Of a stretch of 43,047 nt of DNA, positions 9,145 through 42,778 are shown piece after piece. Below the pieces are notes generated by a model. The model saw only the letters and a list, made by a program, of their open reading frames with translations, did no database searches and was not told where the DNA came from. Both the position numbers and the translations under genes were made by a program. The stretch is from Collodictyon triciliatum (taxonomy: Eukaryota), in assembly GCA_043381765.1 (NCBI GenBank), contig JBHJMP010000852.1, forward strand, positions 1 through 43,047. The letters run 5' to 3'. Numbering within the stretch: position 1 is the stretch's first letter; each line of letters starts with the position of its first letter.

Positions 9145-14547
<5,403 letters not shown>

Positions 14548-15096
14548 TATTCGCAACGCACTCCTTACGGTACCCGTTCAATCTGTTTATGCAAATGTCA
14601 ACCACGCCTCAACCGAGAATCGTCACCTTTTGCTTCTTTTTTTCCCCCCTCATTTTCCCCTCATTGAACACATCGACAAATACATAAAGTGCTGCTAAAG
14701 GAAGCCTCCTTTTTTTTCTTCAGTTTTTTTTTCCCCCTCTTCTTTTTCCTCTTCATTTCTCTCGGTACATGACAGAGAATGCTAACCCAGTCGATAAAAG
14801 CCCAGCATTAGTGGAATTAGATTCTTTTGTAAACATATCACAACTCCTAACCAGCCCATTATGCACAAAGAAAGCAGTGAAAAGATGTCTTTGAAAAGGA
14901 GGAAACAATAATCATTTTATTGCAAGTTGCGGGTGGTCAAACCTCAATGCCGGTCGTTTTTTTTTATCTTCTCTCCTTCTTTCGTTCCTTTTTAAGCTTT
15001 TCCGCCTTTTTTTTTTTTTTTGGAAGAAAAAAGTATTGGTGATGAATATTCAGTATGTCAAGCGATGTCTAGATGTAGATGCATACATTCTGATTG

Positions 15097-15133
<37 letters not shown>

Positions 15134-15180
15134 TCGGTACAAGAGGAGATACGGGCTGTGGTGATTAAGCAGCAGAGCGC

Positions 15181-16064
15181 CTAGAACGTATCCAGCGTGG
15201 CAATGGCAGAGCAGAATGCCTGGAATGCAGACATGGGATACATAAAGTCCATTCCGTAGCTGCCGTCCTGCAGCCGGCCCACCTGGAGAACAACGTCTGT
15301 GCAGAGTGCGCAGGACTTTATCACTTGGCTGGGCATACATATATGTATATTCATGGCGATATAAATCGCAAACGATTCTGCGTCTTGGATGGCACAGAGT
15401 GGGAAAGACACATAGACGTACTTCGGATGGTCCCGATTTCGATTTCCAGCTGGAAGTTGCGATTGGAGGGGACGCGGGGGCGGCCATAAAAGTTGTGGAC
15501 GTGCGTGTTGCTTTCTAATGGGTTGGATGGAAATATTTTATACATCTGGGCTTCTCGAATCCTGATATGGTGGCAATACTCCTGCCGCGGTGGATATTCT
15601 CATCGCTGTTGCTTTGACTTTTTCTACCATAATCATAACTTTCTGCTGTTATAAACGTTGTTTGTTTTGTTATCCTCTTTTTTGCTTGTGTTCTTTTTGA
15701 AAAAAAGAAGAAAATAAGGAGCTTCTTTTGGTAATCACATCACTCCTCGATTTTAAATGAACTCACTCGCGTGCCACGTCGGAAGCCGGGCGTGAAGAAT
15801 CATAATGTCCGGGTCTTCGCCGTGTCGGTCGAATCGTTTCTTGAGGCTTTCGGATTTCCTCATCGGCACGATGGACAAGTGTTGGTTGTTCAGAATGATT
15901 GGAATTAAGACAGTCATGTTTCTCGGGGCTTTGTCTGTCTGGTTATATTGTAGGACGCAGATATAAGTGATTTGGTCGGTTGGTGGGACGGGTGGGCTAT
16001 GATAAATATATATAACGAAAGATAATGAGAGCAAAGTAATCAAACGATATATAGAGTGATGGCT

Positions 16065-16158
<94 letters not shown>

Positions 16159-19100
16159 CAAAATGAGGGAAATGAGATAAGAAAGAGAGCAGCCTTTGGT
16201 CGAAGTTAAAATGATGAAGGAGACGCACAATCATCACCATCCCGAGCTCAGATCTACACGTGCTGATTGCCATGTCTTGGTTCGTGCGAGCGGGGTTGGA
16301 CCCTTTGTCGTATATGTTGTATGTAGTGCGCCGAAGATTTCCCCTGTCGAGAACAAGTTTTGCCGAATATAATAGAAGGAGGAGATAAAAAAAAGCCAAA
16401 TCAATTAACTTAACCTGTGTGTAAATGTATCTTTAATACATATATATGGTCTGCTGGCTCTTCTCTTTTAATTGACTAATTTTTTTTAATGGCATTCACA
16501 GCACACCTACCGAAGCTTTCCCAAATAATTGGGGTGTTTTCGTCGAACATAATTGTTGGTGAGAATAACAGCAAAGTTTGACGTCCTGCTGTTTATCTAT
16601 TTGTGATAAAAAAAAATAATGAATGAAACGACATCCTGTGGTAGAAAAACAGACATACCGAAAATAAAAATATAAGGAGGTAAAACTGCTTGCAATGGTC
16701 ACCTTTTTAAAAGCGGTCAGAAGATACTTGTTGTTTACTTCATCATACAAAGTATACGCCGTATGCCCATCGATTTTTTGTTTTCGAATAGTACATTCGA
16801 AAAGGGTGTTTGGTCCCGGTCTATTAAGATTTTATGAGAATCACAACCAGAGTAAAATGAGTTCTGTGTATGCATCAGAGGAGTGGAGACATTTCAGTAC
16901 AATTCAAACTGGGAATGTTCACGCTACACTTTGAATCGAATAAAGGAAAAAAAAAACTGGGAATGTTCTGCTCATAAACCAAACAAAATTACATTAATCG
17001 TGCACACAATCTACAAAATATTAGAGAATGATATGAATCATGGCGATATATATATAAAGGGAACATGATTATTTCAAAATGAAACCTCATAACGAATTCC
17101 TTCAGTTGCTCAATGTCAAATGCGAGTGCATTTTGGAAGCGAATAGCTTCTTGCTGAGCCAATCCGAATCCACCTTGGACTTGCAGCGAGAGAGGACGCG
17201 AGCTCCCGGGAGACCTCTCTTGTCCCAAAACACCTTCCGATGACTGTGGATGAAAGCCCACACCGGAACCGACTTGAGTGTTTTCCATTTGGCGCGGCTT
17301 CCTTGTTAATGGGTTTATATTTGTTTGTGTTTCCGCGATTTCCCCTTGTGGGATTTCAACAACTTCGGTGCCTGTGTTGCTCTGCAATTGAACGACATCG
17401 AGTGATGGAACTGATATCGGCTCCGGAACTGGGATTGAGACTGGTTCAAGATGTAATTCTGTGCCATGACTATCATTAGCGCTTGAGTGGACAAGAGCTT
17501 CTGTCGGCAGTTTTTCGCCTTCCTCGTAAACCTCATTTTCGATCTGATTGCACACGTGATATATATTTAAAGCATGAATATCATTCATTTGGTGTACGAA
17601 CTGATCAAAGAAACTTGATGGAAAGTATAAAAAAGTTTAAATAAAATAGTCCTTTTTTTTTGGATAATATCGACATACTTTCTGGTTTGTTTCGGCCTCA
17701 GTGGCTGTCTGATTAGCTGCTTGTTTCTCTTGATTATGGATGCGTGATGGAGGACGCGGACTAAAATCGTCTGAGTCAGTAAGAACTCCAGTCGGATGTG
17801 AGTGTGGTCTATGCTCGCCTTCCACAGGTTTGGTAGGGGACTTTGGCTCATGTTTCTGAGCATTTTCTTTCTTTTCGTGATTATTCTGGTTTCCCGAATT
17901 CGAGTTGAGGAAGGATAAGGGCGGGACGTTCGAGTAAGGATTCCGGAGAGGAAAGAAATCCTCTCTCTGAACAGACTCTCTCGCAGAAGTTGGTGGAGGA
18001 GGCAATGAATCCCTGGGCGAAGCTATTGTGGTTGAAGTCACCTTTGATGGAGGGTAGGGGGATAGTGCAGATTGATTCTGATGTGCTATTGACGAATACT
18101 GCACAGGTCGCGAGTTTCCTGGTGAAACAAACCCACTGGGAAGGCTGCTTATCGGTACTGCGGCAGGCGCTTGAGTGTAGATTGCACGCGGAGCCGTCTC
18201 TGCATTTACTGATGAGCCCGTGTGCAAGTTTGACGGACGCGCAAGAGAAACATATGAGACAGGCTGGTAGCTGCGAGGCGTTGGCGCCTGTGATGAGTGG
18301 ATGATAAGCGGAGGAGAAAACGGGCGGGTCTCGGTGGTATGATGCGCGTAAGTGCGAGGATTGTGTCCAACCGACGAGGCAGCAGACGACTGAGTCAGGG
18401 TTGCAAAGGACCGGGCCGTGGCCGTGGTGATTGTGGATTGCGTGGCCGAGTACTGGGAGGAAGAAGCGGTCAAGGGAGACGAGTACGCAACCGGGCGAGT
18501 GTTGTGTGGAGACGTGAATGACAGGCGCGGAGTGGCTGATACCATTATTGCACTGGCATTTGTCGGAGCCGCAAGTCTTGCACATTCAGGGAAGTTTGAG
18601 GACTTGGCAAAGTCCGCCGCTGTTTGTCCACGTGAGTCACGGATGGCCGGATTGGCTCCGTGGCTGAGAAGCAGTGTCACTGTTTTCTCAAAGCCGCCCG
18701 CGCAGGCCAAATGCAGTGGGGTTCGGCCTGTGTTGTCGGGCTCGTTCACAGAGACCTTGTGGGAAAGTAGCGCCTTGCAAATCAGGTCGAAGCCGTATTC
18801 AGATGCGATGTGCAGAGGACTGAGGCCGTGGCTGTCGTGCAAGTCTGTGCGAGAACCCATCTTGAGGAGCAGGTCCACAAGAAAAAGGTCATTTGCGCGT
18901 GTGGCGTGGTGGATTGCTGTGCTCTTTGTGTCATCTACTGCGTCAATCAAAGCTCCGCGGTCTTTGAGGAGTGCGCAGACTTCGCCGCTGGTGCCGCGGA
19001 CGGCGTGGTGGAATGGAGTGAACCCGCCATAGCCTGGTGTGTTTGCATCGGCTCCGTGCGATAACAGGGCTTGGCTGGCTTCCAGATATCCAGAGTAGGC

Positions 19101-19893
19101 GGCCTGTTGCGAGCATAGGTGGTTGAGGGAGATTTTGAAAAGCGCGTTTAAACCTCATGTTTAGGATATATACTGTTTTTATTTAGAATGGCAAAAAAAA
19201 AAATAATAATTATCATTCGATTTTTATGTTATTGAATATGTAGATGATTTATTTTCAGTCATGCTACTATATTGATTTGGATTATTTTAAAATAATAACA
19301 ATAAATAAATAAATAAAAAGAGTTCTCGCCCTTAGTGATTGGTTGTATCAATAGACATCAACCGTCTCCTACCAAGTGAAGAGGTGTATCCCCGAATTCA
19401 TTCGTGCAGTTCGGATCAGCGCCATTCTCCAAAAGCTTCTGGATGAGTGAAAGGGCATTTGTTTTCGTGGCAAAGTGGAGAGTGGAGTTTTTCCTCTCGC
19501 CAACGTGGTTTTTGAATCCTCGCTCTTCTAGAACGTCTTGTGCAGCCTTGATATCACCGTCCAGGATGAACTGATGAACTCTGCCAAAAAAATATGTCAA
19601 AAATCATGAATGTAGCTAAGAAAAAAATAAAGTGAGTGGATATGGCTTCCAAAGGAAATGGGAAAGAAGGAAGAGTGTGGACTTTATGCTTTTTGTTAAG
19701 CAGGTGGTCTTACGAAAGTATCTTCAAATATACCTGGTATTAAAGAAAGAAAGAAAAGAAAAGAAAAGAAAGAAAAGAAAGAAAAGAAAGAAAAGAAAAT
19801 AAATGATGTGTTTTGCTTTCTCACAAAAAGATCACCAAACCTGCGGACATAAACATCGTCCTGTCCAACTGGAGCTTTTTGACGCTGACTCAT
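15181..19893 (-). CDS. Ankyrin-repeat + Ser/Pro/Thr-rich linker + C-terminal Tubby domain protein (about 10 exons)
   Basis: Ankyrin repeats (STLHFA, GDTPLHLAA, GFTPFHHA, STAIHHA, GLSPLHIA, GRTPLHLAC) splice in phase through the linker exons into Tubby motifs: RPGPNTLFECTIRK, YLGKLRGN, YNIYDKGSNP, RSELG, KAPRNMTVLIP, HNFYGRPRVPSNRNFQL, LQVGR..YGMDFMYPMSAFQAFCSAIATLD*. Confidence 0.85.
16066..16155. repeat. (AG)n microsatellite, intronic
   Basis: Direct reading. Confidence 0.95.
16921..16953 (+). mobile_element. Ultra-short retroposed element with poly(A) tail and 15-bp target-site duplication
   Basis: AAACTGGGAATGTTC(16906-16920)-acgctacACTTTGAATCGAATAAAGG-A(n)-AAACTGGGAATGTTC(16954-16968); same core at 35286-35311 and 41035-41059. 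Confidence 0.8.
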
Positions 19894-20357
19894 TTGTCTG
19901 TCCCTAACGATGCTTCTAGCAAAGTGCGCTATGATATTTTTTTTTTAAAAAAAAAAAAAAAGAAAAGAAGATTGTCTGCCTGTCTGTCTGTCACCATTTA
20001 AAAGGCCGTCTGACACTCTCTCTTCCAAACTTCCTCTCACAAACACAACAAGCACTGACCGATCGTGAGCAGACAAGCGAATCTACCACAAACACACAAA
20101 AAGGGACTCGAACGTGCCGAGTTTAACATGTCATATTTGTACATTCAGCTCTTCGTCTCCAGAAAAGGTATGGACAGACAGGAGGCTGTCGGTTCTGTGA
20201 GGCGGTGAGTCGAATCGCGGATTGCGCTCCATAGAATGACCCCAAAGTGTTTCTTTTTCCAGCTTGGTGAGATGGAAGGTGATGGGATGTGTGTGATGGA
20301 GAGTCTTTGTAGGTGGATTGTCGCGTTTAAGAGGTTTATTAATAGAGTTTTGGCGGA

Positions 20358-22236: not shown

Positions 22237-23775
22237 TTTTGCTGAGCAGTCGTTTTGAGGCTTTTTTTTTTCTTCGGTGCTTCTGGTTGGCTATTTGAAA
22301 GTTAGAAGATGGGGGCAACACAGGGTTTTGTTTCTGGGTGTTAAGACAGAAAAAGTGAAGGTTCTTTCAGGTCAAAGTCGTCGAATGTCCGAGTCTCTCA
22401 CTGCCAGGTTGGAGGTTTGTTCGGGCGATCACGCGAGGTAGACTCACTGTAAAGACACAGCAGATCCAGAGTGGTTCTTTGTGAGGACAGCCGCAAAGCC
22501 CACAGATTATTGTTGCGTGCTACTCGCAACAGAGATGCAGGTTATATTATGTATCCAGAATTGGGATTGTGACCACAGCATAAAGGAATGGGCGTGTTGG
22601 ATTTAATATGATATATAAATATTGTATAACTGCTAAAATATATCAGCATTACATTAAATTTTGTGATTTAAAGCAAATTTATGTAATAGTATTTTTATTC
22701 CAGATCATTATATTAATGGTAATTTATATACGATATATTTTCTATCATACTAAATACAAATGAGGATTTCCTGAAGGAGCCGATGACGACGAAACAGGTG
22801 AAGTAGATACAAAGACACATCTATATGTGGACACAAAGATCAAAAATGTATATGAAGAAAGACATATTCTTTTGTGGAATAAATAATAATCCTCATTTGA
22901 ACTATTAGACCATAAATGGACTTTGAATTCAATTCTGGAAACTCTTTTTGTCTACTTAGTCCATTTAAGGAACAGAAGCAACTTGTAGTGCATTTCTATT
23001 ATAGGATTTATGTTCCATACAAAGAATAAAGGTTCATTTATAGAAGTATCTTATTCTGTTTTGGCGAAGTCTTTTGCAAAACGGTACGCCAAATATATTG
23101 AATAAGACTTATTATGGGTCAAATGCAAAGGATGGGCGCAGATTAGGAAGTAGATGATGAAACAAGATTATTGCTTTTCCGTCCAATTTCCAATATTCCG
23201 CAAAAGGCACCTCAGACAAATATACAGAATATTCACTTAAATAGGGTTTTCCTATTGAAATAAAGCTGTGCTGTTGTTCTTTTGTATGAATTCAATGAAT
23301 AGTTAGATTGGTTCCGAAATGGCCATATCGTAGCAGCTCCTAATGTGGATTTCTATTCGCAGAAATTCGCAGGAAAAGGATGCAGGTATGGGAAAACAAG
23401 CGGTGACACAAGCTCCCAAACATGGCACCTGATTTTGGATTCTCTGCCCGTGTGGTTGAGAAAGAGAGAAAAAAAGAATTTCAGAGGAATTCAAACAAAT
23501 AGCCAAAGGAAAAAAAGCCGAAAAAAATCTCGACAAGAAACTATGAAATTCGGTCAGAATTCTGGAAATCGTGTTTTATTCTCCAAGCAACACAAACGAA
23601 ATAACGTGGAAACCAAAGACGAAAGACAAAGCCCAAGACAGAATTCTGGCGTAATACATATCATCTGCCATCAGAAATTCTGCGGAAAACAATCGAGTCG
23701 ATCTATATAATCAATGCATGAGAGGTGGCAGATTGTTGGCATCCATGTGAGTGACATCAATGCCGCGTTCGCAGC

Positions 23776-24822
23776 ATGACGGAAGAAGGAACAGTCCGCC
23801 AAAACCAAGACGCGTGTGGATGTGCATGCATGCATGTATATAAATCTCGAAGCACGACATCCGGTAGAGAGAGCGAGAGAGAGAGAGTGAGAAGCCTGCG
23901 CATATGCCACCAAACATGTGTGTCTCGCAGCATTGAGAAGCAACATGGGCGGCCAGTAAATCACCGAGAGAGATGTATTGATATATATATTGAGAGACTG
24001 ACTCACCAAGATCACCCAAGACCCAGCACAGTACAACGCAACACAACACAACACAAGACCATGGCCATGACCGCAGCACACGCGCTGATCCCAACGTCGA
24101 TGCAGATTTCGCTGCGGCAGCTCGACCGAATCGCCGCACCCTTCCGGCTGTCGACCCTGACGCTGGCCGTGCCGCCAGCAGCGTCTGCAGAGTCTCCAGG
24201 GAGCGGCACAACCGCAAGCACACAGCAGCCACCCGAGCCACAGACACAACCACAGGGACAGCCACAGCCACAGCCACAGGGACAGCCACAGTCGCGCAAC
24301 AAGCCGCGGTTCTGGACGGAGGCGGAGGACCGAGGGCTGTGGCGGGCGGTGGAGCGGCACGGGGAGCGGGGGTGGGGGGCGATTGCGGAGGCGGTGGGCG
24401 GGGGGCGGAGTGCGGACCAGTGCAGCCAGCGGTGGCACCGTGTGCTTGCGCCCGCCATCCGCCGCACGGAGTGGACGCCCGCGGAGGACGCTGCGCTCGG
24501 GGCGGCCGTGGCTGCGCTGGGGCCGTCGGCGTGGCGGGACGTTGCGCGCCGCGTGCCCGGCCGCACGGATCAGCAGTGCCGCGCCCGCCACCGCCTGCTG
24601 CGCTCCCACCGCGGGCCCCACCCGAAGCGCGCCGCCCACGCCCGCAGGGACTACGTGGACCGCGTCGTTGCCGGCCGCGCACACGAGCCCATCCTCGTCT
24701 GGCACCTGCGCTCCACCCTGCAGCCACAGCCACAGCCACAGCCACAGCAACCGCCACAGCCACAGCTGCAACCATTGCCACAGCCAGACCCTCGCATGTC
24801 TCTCCGCCACATCCTCAATTAG
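23776..24822 (+). CDS. Intronless two-repeat (R2R3-type) Myb transcription factor with Pro/Gln-rich tracts
   Basis: FWTEAEDRGLWRAVERHGERGWGAIAEAVGGGRSADQCSQRW and EWTPAEDAALGAAVAALGPSAWRDVARRVPGRTDQQCRARH. The real start may be the ATG at 24061, where the GC-rich sequence begins. Confidence 0.9.
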   Translation: MTEEGTVRQNQDACGCACMHVYKSRSTTSGRESERERVRSLRICHQTCVSRSIEKQHGRPVNHRERCIDIYIERLTHQDHPRPSTVQRNTTQHKTMAMTAAHALIPTSMQISLRQLDRIAAPFRLSTLTLAVPPAASAESPGSGTTASTQQPPEPQTQPQGQPQPQPQGQPQSRNKPRFWTEAEDRGLWRAVERHGERGWGAIAEAVGGGRSADQCSQRWHRVLAPAIRRTEWTPAEDAALGAAVAALGPSAWRDVARRVPGRTDQQCRARHRLLRSHRGPHPKRAAHARRDYVDRVVAGRAHEPILVWHLRSTLQPQPQPQPQQPPQPQLQPLPQPDPRMSLRHILN

Positions 24823-24942
24823 ACCCCTCCCTCTGCCTCCCTTCCCTTCTCCTTCTCCCTCTCGGTCGCTGCACATAAACACATCATCAGCCACATTGAC
24901 TGCCACAGCAACCGCCACAGCAACCGCCACAGCCACAGCCAC

Positions 24943-27608
<2,666 letters not shown>

Positions 27609-28723: not shown

Positions 28724-30772
<2,049 letters not shown>

Positions 30773-31732: not shown

Positions 31733-34762
<3,030 letters not shown>

Positions 34763-35285
34763 TTCTGCAGTGGATTGATAGTCCTTTAGCCATATGATTA
34801 GCACGGGATAAGTTAAAAGATAATTCGCTCACTCGAAAGAAACTTTGAAGATACCGAAATGGTTCTGTTTTTTTTCCAACTGTGTTAGTGACCTTAGCAT
34901 GACACATTGAGTCTGTAAAAATGGAAAGCAAGGAGGCACAATGATTCATTGTCAAAGTCGAATACCACACCTCTGGGGTTCCTTCAAAATACCCATTTTC
35001 TTGCACAAGGGTTGTTTGTGTTTGTTCGATTGCGATCTATGGCGCTTATTTCCTTGGGTGTCAAGCGTCAGAAGAAATGAATGTTGGTAATCATACCATA
35101 TCTAGACAAAGCGCACAGCAAAGGAGTTTGAGCCGCTTCCACCGTTCTTCATGGCGATATGAATGTGGTTGCTGATGTAGAACTAATGTTGAATTACTGA
35201 TATTGGATTTTATAGAATCAGTATTTATAAATTTTGTTAATAATTCTCAGATGAATTTTTACATTATTATATTAACTAAAGAATT

Positions 35286-35311
35286 TTTTTTTCCTTTATT
35301 CGATTCAAAGT
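35286..35311 (-). mobile_element. Ultra-short retroposed element with poly(A) tail and 14-bp target-site duplication
   Basis: TTAACTAAAGAATT(35272-35285)-T(n)CCTTTATTCGATTCAAAGT-TTAACTAAAGAATT(35312-35325). Confidence 0.8.
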
Positions 35312-35965
35312 TTAACTAAAGAATTATAAAATAGGTATGTACAATTAAAATCTGAGGTGGCTGATATTCAAAAAGACGAGCGTTGAAAAAATCGGCCATA
35401 CTTCTACATTTGGGAAGACGACATGGAAGCAACGAAGTAGTTCAATTCTATTGTGTGGCTGAAAGAGGATTTCCACAATAAGATAAGTGAAATCGAACTG
35501 TATATGGTAAACAATTATATGACGCCATCATGGAAGCAAGAAATTTTTCCTTTTCCGAATGGACAGCGGGTTGAGAACAACAAGCAAACTACAAGAAACT
35601 GAAACACGAATGATTGGCAAATGATTGACAAATGATCAAAAACCGTGTTTATTTTCTGTTCAAACAACCACTTTTCTCTTTCTCTTTCGTTTTTTACACA
35701 AATATATATATATTATATTACGCGCAGATAAAACTAACGATTGCAGTCTTCCCTCTCACCATCACCCCAATGCCGCGTAAAACGAAGGCGGCCCGCACAA
35801 CATCTTCCTTCCCTTTCGCCCACTCCGTTTTCCTCTTCTCCAACACCTCAACCAAACCACCAACGAATCCAGCAAACACACCAACGCATATAACTCCACC
35901 CACCACCATCCACTAGAAAACGCCAAACAACGATATCGCAAACACCATCCCATCCCATCCCACCC

Positions 35966-36110
35966 CACACAAACACAAACACAAACACAAACACAAACAC
36001 AAACACAAACACAAACACAAAGACAAAGACAAACACAAACACAAAGACAAACACAAAGACAAACACAAAGACAAACACAAAGACAAACACAAAGACAAAC
36101 GCAAACACAA
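35966..36110. repeat. (ACAAAC)n/(ACAAAG)n repeat immediately upstream of the HMG gene
   Basis: Direct reading. Confidence 0.9.
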
Positions 36111-36135
36111 CAAACCGACCAACGAAGCAGCCAAG

Positions 36136-37062
36136 ATGCACCGCCCCACGCACGAGCAAACGCTGCCGCCCATCTCCGCCCTGACGATCGCCCTGACTGC
36201 CGCCCGGTCGCCGTCCCTGCCCCTGCCCCTCGCGTCCACGCTGCTCCCGACACCGCCCCCCGCCTCCTCAAAGGATGCCGCACTCTCCTCTGACTCCTCT
36301 GACTCCTCAGACGCGGAGACCGAACCCCACCACCACCCTGCCGAGGCCGCGGAGGCAACACCGCTCGGCAGCCGCTTCATGGCTCTCGACCTGCTTGCCG
36401 CCTGCGTGGCTCATCACGCCCGCAACGACGACGCTGCCACACACACCGCCCCGCCGCTCATCTGGGAGCCGCCCGCCCACCCACAACCACAGCCACATTC
36501 GCAACCACAGCCACAGCCACATTCGCAGCCACAACCACAGCCACAATCGCAACCACAGCCACAGCCACAGGGCAGACGCCTCCCTGCACTGTCGGCCCGG
36601 TCTGTGCGGCGATTCGAGGCGGTGTATCGGCTGCAGCCGAGCGGGGAGGGGCGGACACCCGGGGCGCTGCGGACAGCGGGGATTGTCTTTGTGGACGAGA
36701 CGCCGCGAGAATGCGACAGCAACAGCAACAGCAACAGCGATGCCAATGCCGATGGAGAGAATGACAAGCCAAAGCCAAAGCAAAAGGAGAAGGAGAAGGA
36801 GAAGGAGAAGGAGAAGGAGAAAGGCAAAGGCAAAGGCAAAGATGGGCCCGTCTTCCCGCTCACGCCCGTCCTCGGCAAACGCAAGATCAACGCGTTTCTG
36901 GCGTACACCACCGTCCACCGCAGACACCTGCGCCTGCGCGACCCGTTCATGCACGAGACGGAGCTGCTGCGCCTGGTCTCGCGCCAGTGGAGGGCCATCC
37001 CGCCCCACGAGCGCACATACTACGAGGATCTTGCCCGCTCCATGAACAGCGACCGCCTCTGA
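36136..37062 (+). CDS. Intronless HMG-box transcription factor (C-terminal SOX/MATA-like HMG box)
   Basis: 308-aa ORF ending KRKINAFLAYTTVHRRHLRLRDPFMHETELLRLVSRQWRAIPPHERTYYEDLA; PQ, NS and KE repeats. Confidence 0.85.
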   Translation: MHRPTHEQTLPPISALTIALTAARSPSLPLPLASTLLPTPPPASSKDAALSSDSSDSSDAETEPHHHPAEAAEATPLGSRFMALDLLAACVAHHARNDDAATHTAPPLIWEPPAHPQPQPHSQPQPQPHSQPQPQPQSQPQPQPQGRRLPALSARSVRRFEAVYRLQPSGEGRTPGALRTAGIVFVDETPRECDSNSNSNSDANADGENDKPKPKQKEKEKEKEKEKEKGKGKGKDGPVFPLTPVLGKRKINAFLAYTTVHRRHLRLRDPFMHETELLRLVSRQWRAIPPHERTYYEDLARSMNSDRL

Positions 37063-37267
37063 CGCAGACACCATCCCATATTTGTCCCGCTCGGGCATGC
37101 CATATATGTCATCCGCCGCCAAAGCCCGCTCCTCCGACTCTTCTCTTTGTTTCATGAGAGCCACTCTCGTGCAGCCTCTCTCTCTATACCCCACCGTGGA
37201 TATACTTACTTCCACCCATCCATCTATACATATTCACACACGAAATCGTCGGTTTGTCAAACATGTT

Positions 37268-37614
37268 TTATGATGTGGCGGGTGCTCTGTGAGGGTCATC
37301 GTAGGGAACTGTCTTTTGCGGTTGCTGTCGCTGATGGTGGTGGTGTTGATTCAGGCCGAACGGCAAGGCTGCTTGCATCGCGAGTCCGTGGGATTGTCGC
37401 AGCAGAGCAGGTTCGCTTTCGCCATCGCCCTCGGTCTCTGCAGATGCTTGTGCCTTGTCGTCTTCTCCGTCATCGCTGTAGTCGCTATCGCTTTCGTCCT
37501 CGGAGCTCTGCGACGAGATGGAGAGGAGAGGAGAGGAAAGGAAAGGAAAGGCTGTGATTATGGTACATCATGGTAGACGATGGGAATGGAACGCCAGAAT
37601 AATATATATATGTT

Positions 37615-40600: not shown

Positions 40601-42778
40601 ATAGTTCGTCAGACAGAGACCTATTAGCAGTAATTCCAACGCGTGGTTGACTACAGCGCAGAATAGCAGCCTTTCAAAAAGTAACTGTAAGAATAACTTT
40701 TCCTTCCCCTGACCCTTACCCATCCACTATTATGTAATCTATTGAAATCGATAATTATCCAAATATCAAACCGAACATAATTCTCTTACATCATTCACAG
40801 GATGTTTCCAACACAAAACAGGAATACGCCCTCGACTTCTATACTGCGAAACTAACTCTAGGATGGAGTCATCCACGCTTGATGGTACAACCAAATGGGG
40901 AGGATATGATGAACATATCTGCAAGTATAAAACCAAATGATTAGCAACAGTGCGTCGTTTTCCTTCTAGATAAGCGCTGATTTATAATTCTTTCTACATA
41001 TACATAACTTTTCTATTTATTTTTCTTCAAATACACTTCGAATCGAATAAAGGAAAAAATTCGTCATATACAACACATTTCTCAAATGTGTAAATCAAGT
41101 AATCAAGCGCGCCACTTAATTACCTTATATTCTGAGTTAACATATGAAATCCGCCATCTGTTTGTTGATGGTAGCCGAAAGCGTGAATATTCTGTCCTTA
41201 TATCACCCAGTTCCCACCCATTGAAGCTTCTCGCTTCTTCAAATTGAATAAGGTTTGGTAGTGCCGGAAAAAAAATGCGTCCTGGAAATGATCTATGCAA
41301 ATTGAAGCTTTTAAAAAGACACATCTACATATTGAGTTATCTTATCAGCGAACACATTTAAAGCAAAGATATATTTGATAATATCTCGGTGCAGCATTTG
41401 ATTCATCTATTATCTTGAGAAAAATATTGGAGTGCATTTGTTTAATACACCAGGAGAAATAAGGGGCACTTAACAACGTTTGAAGTTAACTCACAAACTT
41501 TTAATTCTGCTACAAGCCTCTGACCGATTAGACTTTTCCCTTGGGAATAAGAATCGGAGAAAGCGGAAATCCTTACATATGATTTCAAGGCCATACATGG
41601 ATTTCTTGTCATATGACCTCCTCCCTATCTACGATGATAATCGCCTCAGTTAGCAAGTCACTGCTAAACGCAAGCCAAATCCAACCGACCAGGATCCAAA
41701 TATACAGTCTCTTTTATATGTTTTTTTTTTTTAAAAAAAGAGGCACCTTCTTCACTCTCTCAATAGACGCCATAGTAACTGTACAATAATCTATGTCCAC
41801 TTCAAGCATCTAATCCCCCCAAAAGCAGCATATCAAATGACAGTAACCATAATATGAAATGCATACATGGTATTATTCATAAAAAGACTGGCACATTCTA
41901 AAAATATGATAGAAAAGCATTAAAATGGTGGCCATACATCCAGAGGGGTGCTCGATATGAATCCAAGTCTATAGACGGTTACATACAAATAGCCATTCAT
42001 TCTTCCCCCACGAAGAGAATTAATGAATTGGACCGCGTAGTACGCAACAATTTTTTCCTCCTCATACAATCGAACAGACGATGCAATGCTCTCTGAAGGC
42101 TGCATCAGTTGAAAACAATAATGATTATTTCGATATGTGAAAGAAATACACGTTTTATTTTTTTCACAAGACACATGTTTTAAATTCATTCTGGGCAACA
42201 ACATAGATGTCGATATGGACACATAGGAGACAATGAAAGAGCCAAACAGGATTCGAATGTCTGACTCTCGGATAGGCTGAGCCAGAATACCGCTTGCCCG
42301 GCAGATCTGTTAAGAGTTACCCGCGATGTTATTATTTTTCAAAGAAATATATCAACAATCTACAAAGTAAAATAAATATGCAATTAAGTCGAGTAAAAAT
42401 AAAGCAAAAGCAAAAGCAAAAGCAAAAATCAACAAAAAAGTATGCAATATATGATAAATTAAAAAAAAAACAAGCAGAATGAAACCGAATAATAAGGAGA
42501 AATATCGAACGAAGCAAAGGGAAGACCCTTCATGAAAGCATATAAAATAAAATAAACCCGGTGGTGATGCGGCTCCAGGTTCACCCTCCATCAACTTTGT
42601 CAATCCTGCTGCTTTGCCGCTTCTATGTGGCGCGTCCTCCTGATTCTCACAGCAAATCACCTCACCGAAGACCGAGCCACAGGCGCAGCGAAACACAAGC
42701 ACTCAGTCTTCCGGGTTGTGAATGAACCGCTTTTGGTACCTGAGCTTTCCTCCATGTTCGCCTCATCAGCCAATGTCC
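37268..42778 (-). CDS. Myotubularin-family phosphoinositide 3-phosphatase (PH-GRAM + catalytic domain); 5' exons unresolved and possibly beyond the window
   Basis: [77 protein letters not shown], intact active site [48 protein letters not shown]; acidic last exon ends at TAA 37268-37270. Confidence 0.9.
37619..37673. repeat. (TG)n microsatellite, intronic
   Basis: Direct reading. Confidence 0.95.
39217..39321. repeat. (AAAAAGAG)n repeat, intronic
   Basis: Direct reading. Confidence 0.95.
40168..40365. repeat. (AAAGAAAC)n compound repeat, intronic
   Basis: Direct reading. Confidence 0.9.
41035..41059 (+). mobile_element. Older copy of the ultra-short poly(A)-tailed element
   Basis: ACTTCGAATCGAATAAAGGAAAAAA flanked by ttcttcaaataca (41023-41035) and ttcgtcatataca (41060-41072), 11/13 identical. 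Confidence 0.7.

Follow-up and report, generated by a model that had tools for sequence, protein, structure and literature searches.

The question raised by this locus is what kind of element leaves poly(A)-tailed insertions only 19-25 nt long, each set between its own short direct repeat, in the 43,047-nt stretch of Collodictyon triciliatum DNA analysed here (contig JBHJMP010000852.1, positions 1-43,047, forward strand; hereafter the window). A first-pass annotation had proposed a candidate minimal retroposon. We consider instead, at a probability of roughly 0.7, that these stubs are dead-on-arrival, extreme 5'-truncated copies that a poly(A) LINE has left by target-primed reverse transcription (TPRT), and not an element of their own.

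The core 17-mer, TTYGAATCGAATAAAGG, has five matches with up to three mismatches in the 43-kb window, against an expectation of 0.57 and a maximum of 3 in shuffled sequence, and 0 of 100 shuffles reached five. Three of the five are exact (16930-16946, plus strand; 35293-35309, minus strand; 41037-41053, plus strand), so that the recurrence of a core followed by an A-tract, as first annotated, holds for three exact and one or two degenerate copies. When an A-rich 3' side was also required, four real matches remained, whereas 30 shuffles gave 0.07 on average and never more than 1. These two comparisons already refute the reading that an AT-rich word recurs by chance, in favour of which only the weak fifth match can be named.

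Read site by site, four copies (c1-c4) have a common order: target-site duplication (TSD), no or one extra A, LINE-like tail, A-run and the second TSD. Copy c1 (16906-16968, plus strand) has a perfect 15-nt TSD, AAACTGGGAATGTTC, at 16906-16920 and 16954-16968; between them lie an extra A at 16921, a 25-nt tail at 16922-16946 and an A-run at 16947-16956, the final three A of which overlap the downstream TSD. Copy c2 (35272-35325, minus strand) has a perfect 14-nt TSD, AATTCTTTAGTTAA, at 35312-35325 and 35272-35285, which enclose a 19-nt tail (35293-35311) and then nine A (35284-35292), two A being common to the tail and the TSD at 35272-35285. In c3 (41023-41071, plus strand) the TSD-like repeats at 41023-41034 and 41060-41071 match at 10 of 12 positions (TTCTTCAAATAC/TTCGTCATATAC), an alternative duplication being a 23-nt pair at 78% identity; the 19-nt tail at 41035-41053 has one T>C change and is followed by six A at 41054-41059. 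The match to the LINE also takes in the TAC at 41032-41034, which gives 3 nt of microhomology at this junction and makes the tail readable as 19-22 nt. Copy c4 (11516-11563, minus strand) has the TSD AGCTTATAGAGGTAG/AGCTTATGGGTAG at 11549-11563 and 11516-11528, matching at 13 of 15 positions with a 2-nt indel, an extra A at 11548 and a decayed 19-nt tail with three changes at 11529-11547. With no changes and perfect TSDs, c1 and c2 are young; c3 is older and c4 is the oldest. An uncertain fifth candidate (31959-31993, minus strand) consists of a 19-mer with four mismatches at 31975-31993 and then an A-rich stretch, and has no recognisable TSD; it may be an old copy, since four matches with an A-rich 3' side were found where the null mean is 0.07.

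The first-pass annotation placed each copy between its own unrelated direct repeat, and this is borne out by the perfect 15-mer at c1 and by the 150-nt flanks of c1-c4, for which 12 of 12 pairwise comparisons fell inside the shuffle range. The four are therefore independent insertions. A scan of the window for an A-run with a perfect repeat of at least 11 nt returned c1, c2 and one low-complexity case, with none in reversed controls. A relaxed poly(A)-plus-TSD scan again gave c1 and c2 only; shuffled windows give 0-3 matches each, and at this control rate decayed retrocopies beyond c1 and c2 are possible.

The origin of the tail is indicated by L002, a metagenome contig of 1157 nt whose minus strand terminates in ...CGCTACACTTTGAATCGAATAAAGG followed by 10 A. 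A metagenome scan for the tail pattern gave eight loci, with an A-tail in L002 only, the other seven being unrelated chance matches. The pattern had no matches in a viral contig collection, and its ten matches in a genome contig collection were bacterial chance matches, none of them (0 of 10) with an A-tail. The tail and A-run of L002 are identical to c1 at 35 of 35 positions, while identity to the L002 end is 28 of 28 for c2 and 27 of 28 for c3. The core as first delimited fell short at c1, where the identity includes six further element-derived bases upstream of it. Upstream of the tail, L002 continues for at least 1,020 nt, through a 3'UTR of about 93 nt and then into an ORF, a 202-aa part of which matches Pfam zf-RVT at 32.4 bits (cut-off 27.5). 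It is this continuation of the same tail into a coding element that speaks against the proposed minimal retroposon.

The ORF of L002 is 97% identical (182/188) to P0140, a protein of another contig, which continues through a 1-nt frameshift of L002 into the next frame (81/86). At about position 593 of L002 one G is absent that is present in most contigs of four public runs; its loss splits the ORF2 frame, and L002 itself is therefore a dead copy. A word-indexed protein search with the LINE ORF gave no matches, and its Atlas neighbours are zf-RVT/RVT_1 clusters. In a full HMMER search against 1.84 billion representatives there were 14 matches; four of these are proteins of 1226-1275 aa that aligned at their C-termini, and all four have Exo_endo_phos and RVT_1 domains. 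These long relatives are distant, at 29-38% identity, and the recovered protein part of the L002-type family is the C-terminal zf-RVT only, so that it is from relatives at about 30% identity that we infer an endonuclease/reverse transcriptase architecture for this family. Because the core is identical to the L002 tail, because an ORF with zf-RVT lies upstream of it and because relatives of that ORF carry endonuclease and reverse transcriptase, the core is, as judged from sequence, the final 19-25 nt of a LINE 3'UTR.

Further evidence for the parent element comes from the contigs of four public runs (X1, X2, X3 and X5), which were placed on L002. The numbers of contigs matching its LINE part were 336 (X1), 300 (X2), 83 (X3) and 33 (X5), with likeness to L002 ranging from more than 99% down to less than 90%. 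Across the four runs 27-28 of 30 bins on L002 were covered (28 of 30 in X1 and X2), which amounts to the whole LINE part of about 1 kb; the 3' flank of L002 itself (bins 1-78) was covered in none of the four. Among the best-supported ends, beyond which there are 162 further loose ends, a large variety of sequences follows the A-tail (loose ends before L002 101-105), and AT-rich 5' break-offs occur about 400 nt (X2) and about 730 nt (X5) from the tail. From the cover and the break-offs together it follows that longer copies of several lengths exist and that the family is abundant. Long copies reaching a reverse-transcriptase-type ORF, for which the first-pass annotation had suggested looking, are thus found both in L002 and in the contigs of four runs that cover its LINE part. 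Summed contig depth drops from the 3' end inward by about 20-fold in X1 and X2 and about 3-fold in X3, and is flat in X5; we do not count this gradient as evidence, since contig depth cannot rank the parts of an element. A continuum of 5' lengths is only partly shown, as contig depth is no length histogram and 162 ends lie beyond the best-supported ones. Runs X3-X6 contain a fraction of 0.11-0.13 of the words of window positions 14000-20000, a value that is uninformative on habitat or strain.

We note that contigs of X1 and X3 have the last approximately 42 nt of the element in common and then, at L002 152-154, run into a different, GC-rich sequence, which may represent a second subfamily or a non-autonomous partner. 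A reading built on such a sequence is that another parent shares the last 25-45 nt of the LINE, either as a SINE-like partner or as a LINE subfamily with a different UTR, and that the stubs are truncated copies of this parent. The GC-rich ends, in three contigs among the best-supported ends and about 42 nt from the A-tail, would fit that proposal and look more like a variant UTR. No such parent was seen in the window, c1 matches L002 over all 25 nt, and even with a second parent the stubs would remain truncated tails from the same machinery; we regard it as unlikely. Under the preferred reading, truncation of the L002-type LINE itself, the inserts are colinear with L002 and stop where this element, which encodes a zf-RVT protein, has its 3' terminus.

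Another possibility is that a tiny RNA of about 20-25 nt with an A-tail is transcribed on its own and propagates itself as a discrete retroposon. Such an RNA would be expected to leave 5' ends that cluster, as they do at -19 in three of four copies, and stubs that are denser than longer copies, as they are in the window (four against none). However, a sequence of 19-25 nt is too short for a Pol III A/B-box promoter, no Rfam RNA family was matched anywhere in the window, the sequence is the terminus of a coding LINE, and one copy begins 6 nt further upstream in register with that LINE. These points make the proposal very unlikely. Nor are the stubs SINEs in the usual sense. A SINE has a head with a Pol III promoter, derived from tRNA, 7SL or 5S, and behind it a body of 80-500 nt; some SINEs end in the same 3' tail as a partner LINE, whose proteins mobilise them. 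Like tail-sharing SINEs, the stubs are short non-coding inserts that end in a LINE tail; unlike them they have no head and no body. In inserts of 19-25 nt plus an A-run no Pol III promoter and no tRNA, 7SL or 5S head was found, nor any Rfam match in the window, and on both counts, the lack of room for a promoter and the lack of an Rfam match, the stubs are not SINEs.

The mechanism that we propose for the truncated LINE copies is TPRT that ends early. A LINE endonuclease would nick a T-rich target site; the nick sites read from the four copies are TC/AAAC, AT/AATT, TT/TTCT and TT/AGCT, loosely L1-like (TT/AAAA) at n = 4. The freed target 3' end would then prime on the short A-tail of the element (7-10 A), the primed structure being what is seen in the copies. 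Reverse transcription would cover only the last 19-25 nt of the 3'UTR of about 93 nt, the part visible as identity to L002, and the short cDNA would be end-joined to the upstream target end, as suggested by 5' junctions that are blunt, carry one extra A (c1 and c4) or have 3 nt of microhomology (c3). A staggered second nick would give the 12-15-nt duplication. The early end would most plausibly come from run-off on an RNA of which trimming has left only the protein-covered 3' end, or from a preferred fall-off at the boundary between AT-rich and GC-rich sequence. TPRT by a poly(A) LINE had been invoked in the first-pass annotation and is supported by the A-tail, by variable TSDs of 12-15 nt and by the identity to the 3' end of an element carrying a zf-RVT ORF.

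The same inserts could in principle be double-strand-break filler, that is, fragments of LINE cDNA or RNA that were end-joined without endonuclease-dependent TPRT, and their very small size and the extra A at two junctions would suit such an origin. Break repair is not expected to produce 12-15-nt duplications in which the A-tail always abuts the 3' copy, and all copies stop exactly at the LINE 3' terminus. We therefore rate filler slightly lower still than a self-propagating RNA. The copy-specific duplications, perfect at 15 and 14 nt in c1 and c2 and decayed in c3 and c4, together with the A-tail, agree with TPRT.

What distinguishes these LINE copies is where they stop. Tail lengths in the window are 25, 19, 19 (19-22 with microhomology) and 19 nt, and about 19 nt for the doubtful fifth site. 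The first-pass statement that the 5' ends lie close together is accordingly upheld: they fall at -19 in three of four copies (one of them readable as -22 to -19) and at -25 in one, with none shorter or longer in this window sample of n = 4-5. No match in the window to the upstream 1,021 nt of L002 was better than E=2.4, and there is thus no copy longer than 25 nt. A scan for tail suffixes of at least 5 nt followed by at least five A gave no copy with 6-13 nt of tail; of its nine sites three are c1-c3 and the other six match 5 nt only, four of them inside a (GAAAAA)n array and none with a recognisable TSD. A limit of detection was accordingly rejected as the reason why no shorter tails are found, since that scan gave no short TSD-flanked copies. 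Under exponential truncation with a mean of 100-1000 nt, the probability that four of four copies are at most 26 nt long is 3e-3 to 4e-7. With 21 positions available, at least three of four 5' ends would coincide with a probability of 0.009, and all four tails would lie within 19-25 nt, given a range of 5-25 nt, with a probability of 0.012. The clustering is real in this window, with n only 4-5, and smooth random truncation leaves it unexplained; we treat it as a lead, because the sample is tiny and the window was chosen for this pattern. Since young (c1, c2) and old (c3, c4) copies are all stubs, the behaviour has persisted over time.

One explanation offered at first for the common end was a reverse-transcription stop at a CTTT...AAAG stem. 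This was rejected, as the folding energy of the 36-nt insert is only -0.3 kcal/mol and shuffled sequences fold equally well, for the insert (z +0.38) as for the last 70 nt (z +0.31) and the last 160 nt (z -0.48); a structural stop is an unlikely cause of the early end. The LINE ends in 19 AT-rich nt, upstream of which the UTR is GC-rich, and this boundary, together with the extra-A junctions, would be consistent with a trimmed RNA on which synthesis runs off or with a preferred point of fall-off. Either a preferred stop or a trimmed RNA template is thus a possible cause. We suggest tentatively, as a doubtful extension of the truncation model, that the LINE may mainly yield stubs of a defined length, 19 nt and in some cases 25 nt, because the template is trimmed or cut to a fixed 3' fragment or because the enzyme is programmed to stop early. 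Possible origins of such a fixed fragment would be the footprint of a bound protein or small-RNA-guided cleavage.

As to known systems, the stubs resemble mammalian 5'-truncated L1 copies in having an A-tail, an AATAAA that runs into that tail and variable TSDs of 12-15 nt, and in 5' junctions that are blunt or have extra nucleotides or short microhomology (PMC2912911, PMC11702581). For human L1 5'-truncated junctions, the first of these studies gives extra nucleotides in 14.6% and microhomology in about 80% (PMC2912911), and extra nucleotides are also described at L1 and Zorro3 junctions (PMC2912911, PMC3510499). The parent's relatives, like L1, encode APE, reverse transcriptase and a C-terminal zinc-binding domain. 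Size is the main difference: de novo human L1 insertions have a median of 712 bp (PMC11702581), whereas the copies in the window measure 19-25 nt, three of them with one start base, and have A-tails of 6-10 A.

Short processed pseudogenes of human mRNAs (at most 300 bp) are another point of comparison. For these, Terai et al. (2010, PMC2831318) proposed that truncation or degradation of the RNA precedes or accompanies its reverse transcription, which is also the reading favoured here for the stubs. Like the stubs they are very short, contain the RNA 3' end only and have an A-tract, and their TSDs are about 15 nt; unlike the stubs they derive from mRNAs in trans and are mostly 100-300 bp (PMC2831318). 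The stubs in the window come from the LINE's own RNA, are about 10 times shorter and have a recurring end. Within the literature collection searched, there was no LINE with a usual product of less than 30 nt and no paper with the core sequence. The stubs are of a known kind, the 5'-truncated LINE copy, from an unnamed LINE family, and as that family acts in a known way we drop the idea of a minimal retroposon.

The copies lie among multi-exon genes or domain matches for a sugar transporter (5.6 kb, minus strand), HECT (12.5 kb, plus), Tub (15.8 kb, minus), ankyrin (17.6-19.2 kb, minus), a cap methyltransferase (25 kb, plus), Aa_trans (33 kb, minus), an HMG box (36-37 kb, plus) and myotubularin/GRAM (39-42.3 kb, minus). 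The ankyrin ORF had generic ankyrin matches only in a word-indexed protein search, in which the Aa_trans exon had no matches. As first annotated, the copies are intronic or intergenic, none overlapping a Pfam-matched exon; c3, on the plus strand, has myotubularin-like exons on both sides, and as their gene is on the minus strand it runs antisense to them. Relative to the nearest gene with a Pfam match, three of the four stubs lie antisense (c1 to ankyrin, minus; c3 to myotubularin, minus; c4 to HECT, plus). Such placement would keep the AATAAA of the stub off the transcribed strand, and n = 4 is too few to test it.

Other features of the window were noted in passing. At 9234-9297 (minus strand) a 32-nt insert and an A-run lie between two copies of AAAAAATAAGAAA, possibly a further ultra-short insertion, of unrelated sequence; it may be due to chance, since this A-rich repeat does not pass a complexity filter, and if it is real, stubs are not specific to one RNA. 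Long perfect microsatellites are unusually many, with 44 TRF rows in 43 kb, including (TTA)33 twice, (GA)45, (ATATAC)19, (TTCATTGT)37 and (ATT)37, at sites such as 12551-12648, 16066-16155, 25454-25569, 25842-26134, 30542-30640 and 34182-34292. Two GC-rich islands (23671-25973 and 35762-37557), with a GC content of 0.56-0.57 in surroundings of about 0.36, stay open in most of the six frames, contain hexamer and 24-mer repeats (CCACAG-type) and adjoin the matches to the cap methyltransferase and the HMG box; probably they are coding exons rich in repeats.

Each stub puts an AATAAA signal and an A-run into genes. The density of stubs in the window is 93 per Mb (95% interval 25-238), and if defined stubs are indeed the main product at 93 per Mb, they would far outnumber all annotated copies and be invisible to standard repeat annotation. 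As insertions of less than 30 nt escape such annotation, the activity of LINE endonuclease and reverse transcriptase may be undercounted. For L1 there is still debate over what causes 5' truncation, and if the -19 end holds genome-wide, the stubs would provide a natural read-out of where the template RNA or cDNA synthesis ends in TPRT.
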